Shown: piece by piece, positions 42,636 through 58,540 of the stretch
How the letters are laid out: each line of letters begins with the position of its first letter
Position numbering within the stretch: position 1 is the first letter of the stretch
Assembly: GCA_963842845.1 (NCBI GenBank)
Contig: CAWJHZ010000007.1
Coordinates: forward strand, 139,281-203,280
Source of the DNA: an uncultured Chloroflexia bacterium
GTDB taxonomy: Bacteria > Chloroflexota > Dehalococcoidia > DSTF01 > JALHUB01
Direction of reading: 5' to 3'
DNA length: 64,000 nt
Notes under the pieces: model-generated
What the model saw: only the letters and a program-made list of their open reading frames with translations
What the model was told of the DNA's origin: nothing
Databases searched by the model: none
Translations under genes and position numbers: made by a program

Positions 42636-43473
42636 AGCTGACTTCCACACCCACACAAACGCCTCGGACGGCAGACTGACGCCGACGGAACTGGTGCGGC
42701 TGGCGGTGTCGCGCGGGCTCAGCATCCTGGGCGTGACGGACCACGATTCGACGGAAGGCATTCCGGAGGCGCTGGCGGCCGCGTCGCAGCACCCCGGCTT
42801 CACGCTGGTGCCGGGCGTCGAGATGAGCACGGACATCCCGGGCGACGAAGTGCACGTCCTCGGCTTCTTCATCGACCCCGAGGACGCCGCTTTTCAGAAG
42901 GCGCTGTGCGATCTGCGGATGGCGCGTCGGGACCGCGGGCGAATGATGGTGGAAAAGCTTCACGCTCTGGGCATCGACATTCCCTGGGAGCGCGTAGAGG
43001 CGGCGGCGGGCGACGGCTCGGTGGGACGGCCGCACGTGGCGGAGGTACTGCAGGAGATGGGGTACGTGTCGTCGTTCCAGGAGGCCTTCGACCGTTACAT
43101 CGGCCGGAACGGCCCGGCGTACGCGGAGCGCGTCAAGCTCACGCCGGCGGAGGCGATCGCGATGCTGGCGAAGGCTGGCACACTGCCGGTGTTGGCTCAT
43201 CCCGCCAGCCTGTCGAATCTCGACGACCTGCTCGAAGAGCTAAGGGCGGTGGGCATGGTTGGGATGGAAGTCTATTACCAGGACTACGACCGGAGTACTC
43301 TGGCCCGCCTGGCTGCAGCAGCCGAGCGACACGATCTACTGAAGCTGGGCGGCAGCGACTTCCACGGCATCGGCGGCCCTCGGGAGCGCCTCCCCGGCGA
43401 CATTCCTCTTCCCGACGAAGCCATCGAAGCTTTCATGTCGGCGGCGCGCCAGATGACGTCCGGACGAAAGTAG
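42625..43473 (+). CDS. PHP-domain metal-dependent phosphoesterase
   Basis: ADFHTHTNASDG...LGVTDHD are PHP motifs. Confidence 0.75.
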   Translation: MTSKADFHTHTNASDGRLTPTELVRLAVSRGLSILGVTDHDSTEGIPEALAAASQHPGFTLVPGVEMSTDIPGDEVHVLGFFIDPEDAAFQKALCDLRMARRDRGRMMVEKLHALGIDIPWERVEAAAGDGSVGRPHVAEVLQEMGYVSSFQEAFDRYIGRNGPAYAERVKLTPAEAIAMLAKAGTLPVLAHPASLSNLDDLLEELRAVGMVGMEVYYQDYDRSTLARLAAAAERHDLLKLGGSDFHGIGGPRERLPGDIPLPDEAIEAFMSAARQMTSGRK

Positions 43474-43476
43474 CCT

Positions 43477-44133
43477 TCAAGGCGCGTAATAGACGTCCAC
43501 GGGCGCCCAATCGAGGTAGTAGCTGCGGCTGCTGCAGCCGCCGCCGGTGCAGTTACAGGTGAGCCGGACGCGGAAGTTGGCGTTGCTCAGTTCGTCGATG
43601 GTCCAGCTATGGCCCCACGTATCGGCGGAACCGCCGAGAAGCGCCGTATGCTCCGTCGTGCTTTTGACGGTGTCAGAGTAGGGCGCGGTCCACGTGCTGC
43701 CGCCGTCCCACGATAGCTCGACGGACATGCTGGTGGCGTCGCTCATCGAGTCCAGCCACCAGTCCAGGCGCACTCCGATCCCATTTACCGTGCAGCCGCC
43801 GGGAACACCGACGTTGTAGTCGTAGAAGCGGTGGCGGTCGCCCGGGCCGTTGACGTTGCTGGCGTAGCCGCCGCCGTCCGCATAGGCGTTGGTCGGATTC
43901 AGCTCGAAGCCGTCGCCGTTGCCGCCGGTGTCCGCCGCGTTGGCCGACGGATCAAGCAAGCCGGTGCTGTTAGACCGGCAGAAGGACGCGGCGCTGGTGA
44001 AGGTGTTGCCGGAGTTGTCGGCCTGGTCGGAAGACAAGCCGAGGCCCTTCCCCGGGGCACCAGCCGTCAGACCGGTGCCCGCAAGGGCGAGCGCCAGGGC
44101 GATAAGCATTCCGGGCCGGACGAGCATAGGCAT
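43477..44133 (-). CDS. Secreted TasA/TapA-like protein with a SipW-cognate-type signal peptide (Cys-containing C-terminus)
   Basis: A signal peptide (MLIALALALAGTGLTAGA) is followed by DxxxNSGNTFTSAASF. The same motif occurs in the first gene of the operon, and it resembles the TasA/TapA xFxDxxxxxxTFASGT mature N-terminus. Confidence 0.6.
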   Translation of the reverse strand: MPMLVRPGMLIALALALAGTGLTAGAPGKGLGLSSDQADNSGNTFTSAASFCRSNSTGLLDPSANAADTGGNGDGFELNPTNAYADGGGYASNVNGPGDRHRFYDYNVGVPGGCTVNGIGVRLDWWLDSMSDATSMSVELSWDGGSTWTAPYSDTVKSTTEHTALLGGSADTWGHSWTIDELSNANFRVRLTCNCTGGGCSSRSYYLDWAPVDVYYAP

Positions 44134-44216
44134 CGCCTTCCCTTGACGCTACGACCCACAGCTCCAGGCAGCTGCCCCGGCTATCAGCGTGGAGGCGAGC
44201 AGGAGCTTCGCCCGGT

Positions 44217-44810
44217 CTAGCATTGAGGCTCCTCGCTGAAGTATGGACGCGGCGGGCCCTCCTTCCACGTTTGCCACAGGACGATTCCGGCTAGCAGCGC
44301 CGCTGGGATGAATAGGAGAAGGGTGCGGCCGACGGGCCCGCGGGCGAAATGCACAAGGTAGCCTGCCCAGGGAATGCTGAAGACGATTCGATCACCGGGG
44401 CCATAGAGGGCCACCGGCGAGTCTGGCTCCTTATTGGCGTCGCCGCGAGTGATGAACTTGCGCGTGCCGTCGCTGGTATCGATCCCAATGACGCGGTGCA
44501 GAATTGGGCTGGCGTTGGCGGACCTCTTGATAGCGACGATGTCGCCAACCTTGATCGCGTCGGGCTCAATCTTCCTGGTGATGCCGATGCTGCCGGTGCG
44601 GAGCGCCGAGCCCATGCTGCCGCCGTAGATGACGTAGGCGCGGTAGCCGAAGAAGGCCAGAATCGAGGGGACGACAAGCAGGACGATGATGGCCAGCGCC
44701 GCGACCAGGTACGCCCAGCCGGCAAGGGCGAGGCCCTTGCTCAGCGGGACAAGTCGTTGGCGTACGTCAGGGAACCAGCGCGGCATCCTTACCTCCAGCC
44801 CCTTGCCCAA
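44217..44810 (-). CDS. sipW: Signal peptidase I, archaeal/ER type (SipW-like, S26B)
   Basis: A single N-terminal TM helix, a catalytic Ser in YGGSMGSAL (compare SGSMEP), a conserved His in ILHRVIGI, an RGDAN motif and a C-terminal TM helix. Confidence 0.75.
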   Translation of the reverse strand: MGKGLEVRMPRWFPDVRQRLVPLSKGLALAGWAYLVAALAIIVLLVVPSILAFFGYRAYVIYGGSMGSALRTGSIGITRKIEPDAIKVGDIVAIKRSANASPILHRVIGIDTSDGTRKFITRGDANKEPDSPVALYGPGDRIVFSIPWAGYLVHFARGPVGRTLLLFIPAALLAGIVLWQTWKEGPPRPYFSEEPQC

Positions 44811-44817
44811 GCCTCTC

Positions 44818-45372
44818 CTACGGGTTGTTCGTCGTCTGCTCTGCTGCGAACGTGAACGTCGCGGTCGTGGCAGCGGCCTCAGGTCCGGTGGCGTCCGAAG
44901 GGAGCGTCACCTTGAAGCACAGGGCCTCGCTGGTGGCCGCATCCAACACTCGGTCGCCGGGGTCGCCGCCGGTCGCCGGATCGCCGATGGCGCCGTCCCC
45001 GAGCGATCCGCTGTAGAGTGTTGTGCCGTCGAACGTTGCGCAGTCGGTGCCCTTCTCCTTGATGACCAGCGTCAGAGCATCTGCGAGGTTCTTGCTGTCG
45101 ACGTTCGTGGCGACGGTCGTCATCGCATAGCGAAGCTGGAGCGTGCCGTCGTTGGAGATCGTCAGTTGGTCAGTGACGGTATCGCCGGGCGCCATGTTGC
45201 TCATCGTGATGAACGCGCTGGCCGGACTCGTGCTGATTATGACGCTGCCGCTCGTGAACGTGTTGCCGCCGTTGTCGACGCTCTGAGTGAACAGCGAAAG
45301 TCCTCCTCCGAGGCTTACGCAGGCGGCGAGCGTGCTGATGGCTACCATGCTAATGAGAATTCGCTTAATCAT
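44818..45372 (-). CDS. Secreted TasA/camelysin-like protein with a SipW-cognate-type signal peptide
   Basis: MIKRILISMVAISTLAACVSLGGGLSLFTQSVDNGGNTFTSGSVII. A good RBS (GGAGAGGGGG) precedes the ATG, and the gene is first in a three-gene minus-strand operon. Confidence 0.6.
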   Translation of the reverse strand: MIKRILISMVAISTLAACVSLGGGLSLFTQSVDNGGNTFTSGSVIISTSPASAFITMSNMAPGDTVTDQLTISNDGTLQLRYAMTTVATNVDSKNLADALTLVIKEKGTDCATFDGTTLYSGSLGDGAIGDPATGGDPGDRVLDAATSEALCFKVTLPSDATGPEAAATTATFTFAAEQTTNNP

Positions 45373-45657
45373 TGTCGTACGCCCCCTCTCCGGAGGGCTT
45401 GGCGGCTTCAGCCTCCTTCATGCCCGCGCCGGAAGCCTTGTGTCCCGTCTGCGGCCCCTCCCGGGGCGCCACGTCCGGGCTCACGACCTCCCTGTCGCAA
45501 AAGCCGCTCCCTCTCTCGTTTCTTGTCGAATCCTACGTTTTTTCCGGACTCGACCGATGAGCGTATGCCAATGGACATACGTCTTTCTGTTGGAGTATCG
45601 GCTGGGGATAGAGAATGTTAAGGGTGATGTTACTCAATTGTAGTGCGATAATAGCTA

Positions 45658-46179
45658 GTGAATCTGGCGACGGAATGGAGGCGGTTGAACGTGCAGTGCG
45701 CGACGCATCCGGGCGTAGAGACGGAGCTGGCTTGCAGCCGCTGCGGCAAGCCGATCTGCCCGCGCTGCCTGGTGCACACAGACGTCGGGGCGCGCTGTCG
45801 CGAGTGCGCCCATCTGCGTCGCATCCCAACCTACGACGTGGCACTGCCCTATCTCTTGCGGGCGATTGGAACAGCAGTGGTCGGCGGCGTTCTCGGCGGG
45901 ATTCTATGGTGGCTGCTGCTGCCGCGGCGGGGATCGATCATCTCCTATTTCGCGCTGTTCTTCGCAATCGGATTAGGGTACGGGATCGGCGAGGGGGTAA
46001 GCTGGGCTTCGAACCGGAAGCGGGGCGCCGTGCTGCAGGGGACGGCGGCGTGCGGCGTCGTCATAGCTTATCTGCTTCGGAACGTCCTTCAGGGATCCGG
46101 GCTGCTAGCGGCCAGCGACCTCTTCGGCTACGTCACCGTGGGGCTGGCGATCGTGGTGGCCATCGGGCGACTTCGCTAG
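45658..46179 (+). CDS. Membrane protein with an N-terminal Cys/His-rich zinc-ribbon (B-box-like) domain
   Basis: CATHPGVETELACSRCGKPICPRCLVHTDVGARCRECAH is followed by about four TM helices. The start is uncertain and may be the GTG near 45690. Confidence 0.5.
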   Translation: MNLATEWRRLNVQCATHPGVETELACSRCGKPICPRCLVHTDVGARCRECAHLRRIPTYDVALPYLLRAIGTAVVGGVLGGILWWLLLPRRGSIISYFALFFAIGLGYGIGEGVSWASNRKRGAVLQGTAACGVVIAYLLRNVLQGSGLLAASDLFGYVTVGLAIVVAIGRLR

Positions 46180-46519: not shown

Positions 46520-46617
46520 CGTTTCTCCACCTTGATCAACTTCTGTTGGGATTATACATCGGGAGGAAGCGAGGTTCAATGAAAGCAGCGGCCGACGGAA
46601 TGGACGGATCGATGGTG

Positions 46618-47081
46618 CGCCCGGCGGGATTCGAACCCACGGCCTGTCGCCTGAGGCGACCGCTCTATCCGACCGGAGGGGACCCAGCCGCGCCGGGGCA
46701 CGGGTCTCTGTCGCAAGGTATCGGTCGATGGTGCGCCCGGCGGGATTCGAACCCACGGCCTGTCGCCTGAGGCGACCGCTCTATCCCACCGGAGGGGACC
46801 CAGCCGCGCCGGGGCACGGGCCTCTGTCGCAAGGTATCGGTCGATGGTGCGCCCGGCGGGATTCGAACCCACGGCCTGTCGCCTGAGGCGACCGCTCTAT
46901 CCGACCGGAGGGGACCCAGCCGCGCCGGGGCACGGGTCTCTGTCGCAAGGTATCGGTCGATGGTGCGCCCGGCGGGATTCGAACCCACGGCCTGTCGCCT
47001 GAGGCGACCGCTCTATCCCACCGGAGGGGACCCAGCCGCGCCGGGGCACGGGCCTCTGTCGCAAGGTATCGGTCGATGGTG
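46618..47081 (-). repeat. 4 x 116-bp tandem array of truncated tRNA-Arg-like units
   Basis: Units start at 46618, 46734, 46850 and 46966. Their 3' parts are identical to tRNA-Arg (GGATAGAGCG ... AGGCCGTGGGTTCGAATCCCGCCGGGCGCACCA), and the anticodon arm is replaced by a GTCGCC-TCA-GGCGAC hairpin. The copies alternate A/B/A/B through two SNPs. Confidence 0.85.
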
Positions 47082-47158
47082 CGCCCGGCGGGATTCGAAC
47101 CCACGGCCTCAGCCTCCGCAGGGCTGCGCTCTATCCAGCTGAGCTACGAGCGCCCCAA
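47082..47158 (-). tRNA. tRNA-Arg (anticodon read as GCG)
   Basis: The hand-folded cloverleaf is GCGCTCG / CGGGCGC acceptor (one U.G), GCTC/GAGC D-stem, CAGCC-CTGCGGA-GGCTG anticodon arm, T-loop TTCGAAT, discriminator A, and an encoded CCA. Confidence 0.8.
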
Positions 47159-47212
47159 TCAACGTTCGGGCGACGGACGGTCCGGTCCGTCTCGATTCGC
47201 TTTTCAATGGTG

Positions 47213-47298
47213 CCGAAGGTGGGATTTGAACCCACACGCCCTTGCGGACACTACGCCCTGAACGTAGCGCGTCTGCCATTCCGCCACTTCGGCAGGGC
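47213..47298 (-). tRNA. tRNA-Leu (anticodon CAG), class II with a long variable arm
   Basis: Acceptor GCCGAAG / CTTCGGC, anticodon arm CTACG-TTCAGGG-CGTAG, a long variable arm, T-loop TTCAAAT, and an encoded CCA. Confidence 0.85.
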
Positions 47299-47308
47299 CT
47301 GCATGGTG

Positions 47309-47690
47309 GGCGGTACAGAGCTCGAACCTGTGACCTGTCGCCTCAGGCGACCGCTCACCACCTAGTCTGGTGGGCGGCACAGGCTCGAACCTGTGACCTG
47401 TCGCCTCAGGCGACCGCTCACCACCTAGTCTGGTGGGCGGTACAGGGCTCGAACCTGTGACCTGTCGCCTCAGGCGACCGCTCACCACCTAGTCTGGTGG
47501 GCGGCACAGGCTCGAACCTGTGACCTGTCGCCTCAGGCGACCGCTCACCACCTAGTCTGGTGGGCGGTACAGGGCTCGAACCTGTGACCTGTCGCCTCAG
47601 GCGACCGCTCACCACCTAGTCTGGTGGGCGGTACAGGGCTCGAACCTGTGACCTGTCGCCTCAGGCGACCGCTCACCACCTAGTCTGGTG
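47309..47690 (-). repeat. 6 x 63/64-bp tandem array of truncated tRNA-Val-like units
   Basis: Units start at 47309, 47373, 47436, 47500, 47563 and 47627. Each reads GACTAGGTGGTGAGCG + GTCGCC-TGA-GGCGAC hairpin + AGGTCACAGGTTCGAGCCCTGTACCGCCCACCA, which is positions 44-76 of the adjacent tRNA-Val including CCA. Confidence 0.85.
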
Positions 47691-47767
47691 GGCGGTACAG
47701 GGCTCGAACCTGTGACCTCTTCCGTGTGAAGGAAGCGCTCGTACCAACTGAGCTAACCGCCCGCTCC
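47691..47767 (-). tRNA. tRNA-Val (anticodon CAC)
   Basis: Acceptor GGGCGGT / ACCGCCC, D-arm GCTC-AGTTGGTAC-GAGC, anticodon arm CTTCC-TTCACAC-GGAAG, T-arm ACAGG-TTCGAGC-CCTGT, and an encoded CCA. Confidence 0.85.
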
Positions 47768-56730: not shown

Positions 56731-57297
56731 ATGAAGCGAGAAGAGGCCTGGGAGTTGCTCTGCGAGTACACGAAGAGCGATAGCCTGCGCAAGCACGGCC
56801 TCGCCGTTGAGGCGGCGATGCGCCACTACGCCCGCAAGTACGGCGATGACGAGGAGAAGTGGGCGGTCGTTGGCCTGCTGCACGACTTCGACTACGAGAT
56901 CCACCCGACGTTGGACCAGCATCCCCAGGACGGCGCGAAGATCCTGCGCGAGCGCGGCGTGCCGGAGGATATCATCCGGGCGGCGCTGAGCCACGCCGAG
57001 CACCTGCACCTGTCCCGCGATTCGATGATGGAGAAGACGCTCTACGCCGTCGACGAGCTTTCCGGCTTCATTATCGCGGTGGCGCTGGTGCGACCCAGCA
57101 AGAGCATCTTGGACGTGGAGCCCTCGTCGGTCCGCAAAAAGATGAAGGACAAGGCTTTTGCGCGGGCGGTCAACCGTGACGACATCGTCAACGGCGCGGA
57201 GGCGATGGGCGTCGACCTCAACGAGCACATCGCCGAGGTAACGGAAGCGCTGAAGGGGATAGCGGACGAGCTGGGGCTGCGCGGGACGCCCGTCTAG
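56731..57297 (+). CDS. HD-domain phosphohydrolase
   Basis: The H...HD...D pattern is present (LLHDFDYEIHPTLDQHPQDGAKIL). Confidence 0.7.
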   Translation: MKREEAWELLCEYTKSDSLRKHGLAVEAAMRHYARKYGDDEEKWAVVGLLHDFDYEIHPTLDQHPQDGAKILRERGVPEDIIRAALSHAEHLHLSRDSMMEKTLYAVDELSGFIIAVALVRPSKSILDVEPSSVRKKMKDKAFARAVNRDDIVNGAEAMGVDLNEHIAEVTEALKGIADELGLRGTPV

Positions 57298-57803
57298 TCT
57301 TCGACGAACTCGCTCTCGCGGCCCAGCAGCAGCAACGCGGCGCTAGAGACCAGGAACACGGCCGTCATGATGACGGCGGAACTCGCGCACCAGATGCACA
57401 CGGCGTCGATGACGAAGAGCTCCACGTAAGTGAGGTAAGCGGAGTAGGCGACGCCGGCGAGGCTCATCCCCCACACCAGGAGCAGCGGCCGGCCCTCAAA
57501 GCGATTGCCTGTGGCCAGCCAGAAGAGCGCGACCGCCAGTATCGCCAGGTAGCCAAGCAGCCCGAAAAAGGCGACCGGTATGCCGCCGATCCAAGCGTAG
57601 CTACTCTGGGCAACCGTCTCGCAGGTGTAGAAGCCGGCGCAGGCGATGGGCTTGTTGAACCAGTGGACGTAGGTCAGGTAGCCGGCGACACCAGTCCCAG
57701 CCACAGCCAGCAGCGCGATCAGGCCGGCGACCAGCTTCTCCCAGGGTCCGGCGGCGACCATGGCGCCGTCCTCATCCCCCACCACGTCGACCTCTCCCAT
57801 CAC
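57294..57803 (-). CDS. Vitamin K epoxide reductase (VKOR) family membrane protein
   Basis: A 4-5 TM protein with loop cysteines (CAGFYTC) and a CIWC active-site motif. It is co-transcribed with a DsbA-like gene. Confidence 0.7.
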   Translation of the reverse strand: MMGEVDVVGDEDGAMVAAGPWEKLVAGLIALLAVAGTGVAGYLTYVHWFNKPIACAGFYTCETVAQSSYAWIGGIPVAFFGLLGYLAILAVALFWLATGNRFEGRPLLLVWGMSLAGVAYSAYLTYVELFVIDAVCIWCASSAVIMTAVFLVSSAALLLLGRESEFVED

Positions 57804-58540
57804 GGACCCGCAAGCACCTTGTCGATGTCGGCCTTGAACACGCTATAGGCTTCGGCGCCGATGATCTGCGTTGCGCCGGGGAATGGGAGAGATTCGCTGT
57901 CGACGACGCTCGTCTGGCCCAGGTAGAAAGTGGGCGTGGAGTTGACGCCGGCCGAGAGGTCGCTGTTGGTCTCGTTGACGATCTGGTCCTTGTACTTATC
58001 GGAGTCGAGGCAGGAGTTGAAGGCGCTGGTGTCCAGGCCAAGGTCTTTGGCGTACTGCTTGAGATTGTCCTTGCTGTAAGGGTTGAGCGTCGAGAAATTG
58101 GCGAACAGAAGGTCATGATAGTCCCAGTAGTGGCTCTGTTCGCCGGCGCACAGCGCCGCCTCCGACGCCGTCAGCACATCACCGCTGAGCGCCAGCGGGT
58201 GAAAGACAATCCTCAGCTTGCCGGTATCGACGTAGTCTTTCTCGATGCTGGGGGCGGTGTTCTCCGTGTAGTCCGCGCAGTGCGAGCAGTCGAAGCGGAA
58301 GTACTCGATGAGCGTGGCCGGGGCGCTGTCCTGGCCGGCAGACGCGTCAGTTTGAGGCGCCGTGTGCGTTGGGCCGGGCGTGGCTCTTGTGGCGCTGACG
58401 CTACTGCCGCCGCCGCCGACAACGTTGCTCACAATCACGATCAAGACAACGACGAGGATGGCCCCCCCGCCAATAAGCGCTATGGGAACCCAGGCGCGCC
58501 CAGTCGATACTTGCTTCTTTTTTGCTCTTCGTGGTTGCAT
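57800..58540 (-). CDS. DsbA-family thiol:disulfide oxidoreductase, membrane-anchored
   Basis: An N-terminal TM helix and a thioredoxin fold with a CSHC active site (FDCSHCADY). Confidence 0.75.
   Translation of the reverse strand: MQPRRAKKKQVSTGRAWVPIALIGGGAILVVVLIVIVSNVVGGGGSSVSATRATPGPTHTAPQTDASAGQDSAPATLIEYFRFDCSHCADYTENTAPSIEKDYVDTGKLRIVFHPLALSGDVLTASEAALCAGEQSHYWDYHDLLFANFSTLNPYSKDNLKQYAKDLGLDTSAFNSCLDSDKYKDQIVNETNSDLSAGVNSTPTFYLGQTSVVDSESLPFPGATQIIGAEAYSVFKADIDKVLAGP

Follow-up and report, generated by a model that had tools for sequence, protein, structure and literature searches.

The DNA considered here, hereafter the window, is a stretch of 64,000 nucleotides (nt) from an uncultured member of the Dehalococcoidia, phylum Chloroflexota (GenBank assembly GCA_963842845.1, contig CAWJHZ010000007.1, positions 139,281 to 203,280). 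Its G+C content is 60-68%, and its nucleotide identity to a contig of the Dehalococcoidia metagenome-assembled genome (MAG) 'SPRUCE 355' is ~95.3%. Between positions 43477 and 45372 of the minus strand, three co-oriented open reading frames (ORFs) encode a secreted protein (P1), a signal peptidase (P2) and a second secreted protein (P3). The findings described below suggest that this operon probably specifies a SipW-dependent fibre of the TasA superfamily assembled by donor-strand exchange, in which P3 would nucleate assembly in the manner of TapA or sit at the fibre end as adhesin or anchor. A preliminary description had recognized a three-gene minus-strand operon at this site, and the ORFs are present as it reported; so are the peptidase motifs GGSMGS, ILHRVIG and RGDAN in P2 and the Cys-rich segment LTCNCTGGGCSS in P3. 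The features of the locus, with lengths in amino acids (aa) and positions counted in the window, are the following:

44818..45372, minus strand: P1, TasA-superfamily protein of 184 aa (PF12389; profile match to TasA 8AUR/5OF1; NCBI names of relatives)
45247..45294, minus strand: P1 residues 27-42 (LFTQSVDNGGNTFTSG), predicted donor strand (alignment with TasA 28-42)
44217..44786, minus strand: P2, archaeal/endoplasmic reticulum (ER)-type (S26B, SipW-like) signal peptidase I of 189 aa (TIGR02228; SEC11A/C alignments)
43477..44133, minus strand: P3, secreted accessory protein of 218 aa (661 relatives; AF2, that is AlphaFold2, model; Foldseek)
43990..44037, minus strand: P3 residues 33-48 (LSSDQADNSGNTFTSA), putative mimic of the P1 donor strand (hhalign; likeness of cognate pairs)
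43480..43980, minus strand: P3 globular domain, residues 52-218 (alignment, AF2, Foldseek)
44149..44223, minus strand: 24-codon ORF MLDRAKLLLASTLIAGAAAWSCGS*, with an ATG that overlaps the stop codon of P2
45373..45593, minus strand: conserved 5′ leader, ~220 nt (nhmmer, covariance model)
45594..45621, minus strand: promoter-like site (sigma-70-like match, conserved box)

The three genes are closely packed, with gaps of 31 nt between P1 and P2 and of 83 nt between P2 and P3. Downstream, a PHP-domain gene ending at 43473 is convergent with the operon, and no terminator was found 3′ of P3; RNase Y, YmdB and an isocitrate dehydrogenase-family gene are found in the flanks. The two secreted proteins are linked by a motif that follows their signal peptides, D-N-x-G-N-T-F-T-S-[GA], which reads DNGGNTFTSG in P1 and DNSGNTFTSA in P3, as had been noticed before. 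Among all ORFs of at least 80 aa in the window, P1 and P3 are its sole carriers.

The reading frame of the signal peptidase P2 (44217-44810) opens with a TTG, from which the protein would have 197 aa; the ATG at 44786 is the more likely start, because it is preceded by GGAGGT and because the resulting length of 189 aa is close to the 190 aa of the orthologue in the related locus L001. P2 passes the cut-off of TIGR02228 (82.2 bits, cut-off 51.85) and falls below that of the bacterial LepB-type model TIGR02227 (29.7 bits, cut-off 47). Its only relatives among PDB structures are human SEC11A and SEC11C, no LepB being returned, and in the alignment with these proteins GGS57MGS of P2 faces SGSMEP, ILH97RVI faces IVHRVI and RGD116AN faces KGDNN. 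With numbering from the ATG, the codons of Ser57 and His97 lie at 44616-44618 and 44496-44498, and Asp116 is that of RGDAN. Two hydrophobic segments span approximately residues 15-54 and 150-174. On these matches P2 is an archaeal/ER-type Ser-His signal peptidase I (MEROPS S26B; SipW/Sec11), as originally proposed, and not an enzyme of the Ser-Lys type. The score against the Bacillus SipW equivalog NF046067 is 73 bits, below the cut-off of 190, and P2 is therefore a SipW kind of enzyme without an orthologue-level match. In four distant trios (L019, L024, L028 and L033) the SipW homologues are much longer than P2, at 313-458 aa; by analogy with the Anaerolinea signal peptidase (SPase)-DUF5305 fusions of the AbpX preprint, they may be fused to an accessory domain.

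Several lines of comparison place P1 in the TasA superfamily. Specifically, P1 scores 39.5 bits against PF12389 (Peptidase_M73, TasA/camelysin; threshold 22.5), with residues 3-95 matching profile positions 3-93 of 196. It has 580 relatives, nearly all with a precomputed PF12389 match and some named 'TasA family protein [Dehalococcoidia bacterium]' by NCBI. In addition, a profile built from an alignment of 34 members of the P1 family (A2) matches TasA (8AUR/5OF1) with an E-value of 2e-6. In this profile alignment N-T-F39-T-S-G of P1 lies on A-T-F39-A-S-G of TasA, P1 residues 27-42 lie on TasA residues 28-42, that is, the donor strand (28-38) and F39, and the first strands are aligned as well. 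In TasA, F29, I32 and F39 of the donor strand region (donor strand, residues 28-38) are buried in neighbouring subunits (PMC9674648); the corresponding segment of P1 carries F28, V32 and F39. P1 is accordingly regarded as a TasA-superfamily member on the strength of its sequence, and is predicted to be the major fibre subunit. The more specific family models were not reached, with 29.8 bits against 450 for the TasA equivalog NF046066 and 22 bits against 60 for the BsaA family TIGR04090; sub-threshold matches to these models occur in 34/34 and 25/34 of the P1 relatives, respectively.

The signal peptide of P1 comprises residues 1-26, leaving a predicted mature protein of 158 aa (~16 kDa, pI 4.05). 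Cys111 and Cys152 are invariant in the family, and one conserved disulfide is predicted. The AF2 model has an all-beta core, with a predicted local distance difference test score (pLDDT) of ~85 over residues 55-180 and of 69 overall; residues 13-51 are unstructured in this monomer model, as expected of a segment that pairs with another subunit. A Foldseek search of the PDB with this model returned weak matches only, among which are the donor-strand filament subunits 7pnb, 6erj and 7ueg. A further possibility, that P1 fibres carry the isopeptide 'lock' of BsaA, was considered and rejected. The BsaA triad is N-E-K, with Asn in the donor strand and Lys and Glu in the acceptor (PMC11580942); Asn37 and Glu149 are invariant in A2, but no Lys column is conserved, so that the triad is incomplete.

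P3 is built from a signal peptide (residues 1-32), an N-terminal strand resembling that of P1, and a jelly-roll domain similar to carbohydrate-binding modules (CBMs). Its 661 relatives are all unnamed and come nearly all from Chloroflexota/Dehalococcoidia MAGs; P3 matched no Pfam or NCBIfam model and has no sequence relative in the PDB. When the alignment of the P3 family (A1) was compared with A2 by hhalign, a similarity was found (E 2.7e-7, 93% probability) that is confined to 42 N-terminal columns, corresponding to the last part of the signal peptide and to the ~16 residues that follow the predicted cut (LS|LFTQSVDNGGNTFTSG in P1 and LG|LSSDQADNSGNTFTSA in P3). Over the first 16 mature residues of the two window proteins 10/16 are identical, with equal spacing to the N-x-F motif. 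In 37 P1/P3 pairs taken from independent contigs, the N-terminal 19-mers of cognate partners share 7.38 identical positions, versus 6.13 +/- 0.21 after shuffling (p ~5e-5), and in one locus (L015) they are identical at 16/19.

The preliminary description had likened the N-terminal regions of both proteins to the SipW-cognate signal class TIGR04088. This comparison finds no backing in the window, where neither P1 nor P3 matches the model at E <= 1. Among the relatives the matches are weak (4/34 P1 and 2/33 P3, E ~0.003), and the family consensus, G-L-A | L-F-T-D ... N-T-F-T-S-A, resembles that class.

The region between P2 and P3 may hold a trace of the history of this N-terminus. The 24-codon ORF (44149..44223) shows homology to the first residues of P3 signal peptides from related loci: the P3 orthologues of L086 and L010 begin with MLGRAKLLLASTLIAGAFA, and P0007 and P0032 can be compared with them. 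The ORF is probably what is left of an earlier, or an alternative, start of P3. In this lineage P3 seems to have acquired another signal peptide while a remnant of the old one was kept, possibly after one of two tandem paralogues of P3 had been lost.

In the AF2 model of P3, residues 50-218 form a beta sandwich with pLDDT > 90, and residues 19-44 are disordered. The best Foldseek matches are the carbohydrate-binding jelly rolls CBM4-2, CBM16, CBM22, CBM35 and CBM6, at a weak level of similarity (E 1e-4 to 1e-3, template modelling (TM) scores of 0.35-0.55, identity 11-16%). Sequence landmarks of the window protein are the loop AADTGGNGDGFELNP, rich in Gly and Asp, the motif GDRHRFY, the segment ELSWDGGSTW, which resembles an Asp box, and, close to the C-terminus, LDW. 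In the family alignment the loop reads AADTGGDGDGFELNP, the motif GDRHRFYNY and the Asp-box-like segment LSWDGGTSW; Trp, Asp and Arg are invariant at many positions, and E77, D99, R100, H101, W125, W142 and D208 are among the invariant residues. The cysteines follow a pattern as well. Cys52 and Cys114 are both present in 24 sequences, both missing in 8 and single in 1, whereas for Cys195 and Cys200 the figures are 22, 9 and 2, and Cys193 varies independently. From this co-occurrence, disulfides C52-C114 and C195-C200 are predicted, with C193 unpaired, and the Cys-rich tail thus resolves into a small loop closed by a disulfide and a single leftover cysteine. The globular part of P3 is neither TasA-like nor TapA-like. 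It has no NCBIfam or Pfam match to TapA (YqxM; TIGR04087) and no PDB sequence match, and its model resembles the CBM jelly rolls and not TasA or the immunoglobulin (Ig)-like fold of TapA. The earlier view of both flanking proteins as TasA/TapA-like consequently stands for P1, by PF12389 and the TasA profile, and falls for the globular part of P3.

This domain extends far beyond the operon. An exhaustive profile search returned 6015 cluster representatives at E <= 1e-3 (clusters at 50% identity), 2287 of them at E <= 1e-10, in proteins of 175 to 3109 aa with 1 to 11 copies of the domain; no Pfam model covers it in any protein scanned. In most of the best 150 of the 6015 representatives it stands behind ordinary signal peptides in large secreted proteins, and its partner domains include PA14, GLEYA, Big_1, CARDB and cadherin-like domains. 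Among the P3 orthologues there are some that carry the domain twice in tandem or end in a tail rich in Pro and Thr. In other cases the domain follows the N-terminus of a pilin. Specifically, a 665-aa ORF of locus L004 (4948-6945) starts with MRAKRGERGFTLVELLVA, has a PF07963 N-terminus and carries two C-terminal copies after Pro/Thr linkers; it sits in a pilus gene cluster, between T2SSE/T2SSF genes and a PilM gene, with a similar case in L031. In L063 and L077 the domain lies behind TadE (PF07811) N-termini. Since it has been grafted onto pilin and TadE N-termini, display on filaments is indicated, and the domain is most likely a module displayed on filaments and surface proteins, with binding as its likeliest role. 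Neither the P3 family and its domain nor the sharing of this domain with pilin and TadE proteins has been described before.

The association of the three genes is conserved. The order P1-SipW-P3, on one strand and with short gaps, recurs in at least 17 Chloroflexota genome loci and in ~20 metagenome contigs. A trio in a 2.28-Mb Chloroflexota contig has the same flanking genes as the window, and in L003 the flanks differ. Tandem P3 paralogues, two in each case, occur in L008, L009, L024 and L091. P1 and SipW adjoin in all P3 relatives that have the P1-like N-terminus and enough upstream sequence; where they were not found (L002/L026 and L016) the contig ends just upstream of P3. The N-terminal similarity detected by hhalign, together with the recurrence of the trio in many independent contigs, places the P1/P3 arrangement beyond chance.

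Upstream of P1 lies a promoter-like site, the sole sigma-70-like match in 43200-45900, with a -35 element TTAACA, a 16-nt spacer and a -10 element GATACT that ends at 45594; a CCGATA[AC]T box is found in register upstream of the P1 orthologues in > 30 loci. Between this site and the P1 ATG extends a leader of ~220 nt (180-230 nt), which a covariance model and nhmmer place upstream of the P1 gene in 34 loci. Directly after the predicted transcription start a hairpin can form (GUAUGUCC..GGCAUAC; as an inverted repeat, GTATGYC-N4-GGCRTAC), followed by an invariant GCAGGGA, by further hairpins and by a segment CCCUCC complementary to the Shine-Dalgarno sequence GGAGAGGGGG. A long hairpin occupies the same place with a wholly different sequence in two subgroups. 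Between L001 and the window the leader is highly conserved, with a mean column identity of 87% in a four-row alignment in which two rows are the L001 contig, versus 75% for the P3 protein. An 18-codon upstream ORF in the window leader was discarded, as its ATG is absent in relatives. Likewise, a search of Rfam at E <= 1 gave no match to the leader in the window or in five related loci, and the idea of a known riboswitch was dropped.

Two explanations of this region were weighed. A possibility is that it consists of the promoter and of a palindromic operator for a DNA-binding repressor, in the manner of the SinR control of tapA, with no RNA element at all. We hold this to be a minority view, albeit one with real grounds: the first hairpin is an inverted repeat right behind the -10 box, and RNAalifold on plain MAFFT alignments gives shifting structures with almost no covariation; on the same MAFFT columns the leader helices drawn by hand (P2-P5, not to be confused with the proteins) were not upheld. 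However, conservation runs for ~200 nt up to the start codon and includes the anti-Shine-Dalgarno segment, and several stem positions vary through G-U (U-G, U-A, C-G), a course that keeps RNA pairing and not DNA symmetry. Moreover, in the model-fitted alignment, where 90% of cells pair, 20/37 leader pairs show double-sided changes, versus 11.3 +/- 1.6 in shuffles and <= 6 in slid controls, although such an alignment is biased to the structure it was built from and most of the double changes come from a weakly scoring subgroup (18-26 bits). The sequence evidence thus lends moderate support to the leader as a candidate new cis-regulatory RNA, undescribed before.

From the family memberships, the common N-terminus, the synteny, the fold class and the domain distribution, all of which are directly supported, we infer a scheme that includes the cleavage sites, the polymerisation, the position and role of P3 and the function of the leader. 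P1 and P3 would enter the Sec pathway, and the membrane-bound P2 would cut their unusual signal peptides, in P1 behind Ser26 and in P3 behind Gly32. Once mature, P1 would polymerise, its N-terminal strand (LFTQSVDNGGNTF...) being inserted into the beta-sandwich of the next P1. P3 carries a P1-type strand on an unrelated and already complete jelly roll, and would therefore be a strand donor to P1 and never an acceptor. Consequently, it would be present once per fibre, at one end, and might nucleate assembly as TapA does, with its CBM-like domain acting as a terminal adhesin or as a cell-surface anchor. The leader, which is probably structured and can mask the ribosome-binding site, would be likely to control expression. 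By the working definition adopted here P3 is TapA-like, as it combines an N-terminus mimicking the donor strand, a complete domain and a sipW neighbour; nucleation itself is proposed by analogy.

A number of observations weigh against this scheme. The PF12389 match is limited to the N-terminal half of P1, and TasA (5OF1) is absent from the top 50 Foldseek matches of the P1 model, whose pLDDT is only 69. On the side of P3, the similarity of the domain to CBMs is weak (TM 0.35-0.55). In the window, position 2 of its mature strand is not aromatic and Ala stands in place of the P1 Val (LSSDQA versus LFTQSV); the strand is less hydrophobic than that of P1, and a weaker mimic than the strands of many relatives. 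Finally, shared ancestry among loci inflates the test of P1/P3 co-variation, which in any case could reflect recognition by a common peptidase and not a common acceptor groove.

Some of these points would suit the main alternative, in which P3 is an independent SipW-dependent carbohydrate-binding or matrix protein, which has only export and the cleavage signal in common with P1 and stays outside the fibre. The shared segment does overlap the region recognized by the signal peptidase, the window P3 strand is less hydrophobic than that of P1, the fold is CBM-like, and most of the 150 best representatives of the domain are large secreted proteins with ordinary signal peptides. However, the likeness continues for ~16 residues past the predicted cleavage, far beyond the need of a peptidase, and the shared residues fall exactly on the donor-strand positions of TasA. 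In addition, the mature N-termini can be near-identical within a single locus (L015), and TapA and AbpB offer precedents (PMC9674648, PMC9245690). An independent P3 is, on balance, unlikely. Still less can be said for P1 as a monomeric surface protein, maybe a lipoprotein anchored through Cys18, or as a camelysin-like protease and no fibre subunit, which we judge very improbable. In its favour, the L-A-A-C at residues 15-18 (45319-45330) fits a lipobox, the 12 nearest of the 34 relatives retain Cys18, and the PF12389 label still reads 'camelysin metallo-endopeptidase'. However, all other family members have F, L or S at position 18, so that the lipoprotein reading is only a minor one, and a downstream cut by the dedicated SipW-type peptidase would remove this residue. 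Moreover, the peptidase label of the family is regarded as a misidentification (PMC11580942), and A2 shows no conserved metal-binding motif.

The surroundings of the operon deserve a brief description. Divergently from it, on the plus strand (45658-46179), lies the gene of a 173-aa protein with a Cys-rich, zinc-ribbon-like N-terminal segment (CSRCGKPICPRC...CREC) and hydrophobic segments towards the C-terminus; it has no Pfam match, and a protein of similar size adjoins the operon in L001. Farther on, two tandem arrays of tRNA-derived pieces are found at 46596-47175 (~4 units of 116 nt) and 47255-47765 (~6.5 units of 64 nt), with units 97-98% alike, next to genuine tRNA-Arg(gcg), tRNA-Leu(cag) and tRNA-Val(cac) genes. 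In the first array ARAGORN reports two 95-nt 'tRNA-Arg(ccg)' genes, neither of which is supported by the Rfam tRNA model. At ~13 kb from the operon, a VKOR gene (57294-57803, minus strand) overlaps a gene for a DsbA-like thioredoxin (57800-58540, minus strand), both passing their Pfam thresholds. The preliminary description had suggested that this pair might service the Cys-containing substrate of the operon. The pair is indeed there, and is a general housekeeping module for the formation of extracytoplasmic disulfides; nothing was found that ties it specifically to the operon beyond the disulfides predicted in both fibre proteins.

Peat, sediment and groundwater harbour abundant Chloroflexota of the class Dehalococcoidia, most of them uncultured. 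For the attachment of these bacteria to surfaces or to each other, the locus provides a concrete three-protein candidate, namely an attachment or biofilm fibre. In addition, the principle of TapA, that is, an accessory protein that borrows the donor strand of the major subunit, would be extended to a new accessory fold. The novelty of the module as such is modest, and the parts of note are the unannotated domain family and the leader. The former is very large, is found on pili and on large surface proteins in several phyla, and merits a Pfam entry; the latter is a candidate for a new RNA element that regulates a matrix or fibre operon in cis. A bolder and more tentative proposal, which we consider possible and no likelier than that, is that the P3 domain represents an undescribed and widespread filament-tip adhesion module, moved among TasA-type fibres, type IV pili and Tad pili, with the fibre operon of this lineage under the control of a new, riboswitch-like leader able to cover the ribosome-binding site.

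Comparison with known systems helps to define what is common and what is peculiar to this locus. The closest parallel in architecture is the tapA-sipW-tasA operon of B. subtilis, in which an ER/archaeal-type signal peptidase is likewise encoded between two secreted substrates and the major subunit belongs to PF12389. TasA fibres are donor-strand-exchange polymers (PMC9674648), a finding that supersedes the 'amyloid-like' fibres of which the preliminary description spoke. TapA has a TasA-like N-terminus, which is the proposed first donor strand, on a fold that is complete in itself, and nucleates TasA fibres (PMC9674648, PMC10151520). TapA and P3 are thus alike in joining the donor-strand sequence of the major subunit to an unrelated complete beta domain, and, since the N-terminus of TapA resembles the TasA donor strand on a complete fold, the N-terminal relation between P1 and P3 is exactly that between TasA and TapA. 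The differences are nevertheless substantial. The gene order is reversed, with the major subunit first and the accessory gene last, so that the earlier designation as a tapA-sipW-tasA-like module is right about the overall kind of system and wrong about its order (tasA-like, sipW, accessory). Mature P1 has ~158 aa and a conserved disulfide, versus 234 aa for B. subtilis TasA; P3 has a CBM-like jelly roll in contrast to the V-set Ig-like fold of TapA, to which it has no sequence relation; the scores against the TasA and SipW equivalog models, 29.8 and 73 bits, lie far below the respective cut-offs of 450 and 190; and no sinR/sinI genes adjoin the operon, which has instead a conserved long 5′ leader.

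A genome survey had already recorded homologues of PF12389 in Chloroflexota (PMC9245690), and a 2026 preprint describes TasA-superfamily loci that encode minor subunits and tip proteins of diverse folds next to a TIGR02228 signal peptidase (SPase I), with AbpX-clade homologues in Chloroflexota (bioRxiv 10.64898/2026.01.04.697558). With these Chloroflexota PF12389 proteins and SPase-linked variable-tip loci already published, the module is of a known kind. The locus shares with AbpX/AbpA-type loci a small acidic major subunit (pI ~4) beside a TIGR02228 peptidase (PMC9245690; bioRxiv 10.64898/2026.01.04.697558), a neighbouring protein predicted to join by donor-strand complementation, and the occurrence of homologues in Chloroflexota. 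It differs in that P2 has 2 hydrophobic segments, as against 10 transmembrane helices in the AbpX-linked enzymes, that no DUF5305, SLH, LPXTG or sortase gene adjoins, and that position 4 of the window P1 is Gln and not an acidic residue.

A third point of reference is the sipW-bsaA-bsaB-bsaC operon of C. perfringens, which encodes SipW, TasA-like subunits and a von Willebrand A protein, and whose BsaA forms 'exchange and lock' fibres (PMC11580942). Common to both operons are SipW, TasA-like subunits and an accessory protein, which in the bsa operon is large and of an adhesion type, as well as the N-x-F of the donor strand (N35-x-F37 in BsaA; N37-T-F39, invariant, in P1). On the other hand, the P1 family has no conserved Lys for the N-E-K triad and P1 scores only 22 of 60 bits against TIGR04090, and the accessory domain is CBM-like in P3 and of the von Willebrand A type in the bsa operon.

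Type IV pilins and TadE-like pseudopilins can be modular, with adhesion modules grafted onto them, as in PilB and PilC of Streptococcus sanguinis. The P3 domain follows the same logic where it is found, in one to several copies after Pro/Thr linkers, on PF07963 and PF07811 N-termini. In the window, by contrast, the module is borne not by a pilin helix but by a TasA-type donor strand with a SipW signal, in an unrelated filament system.

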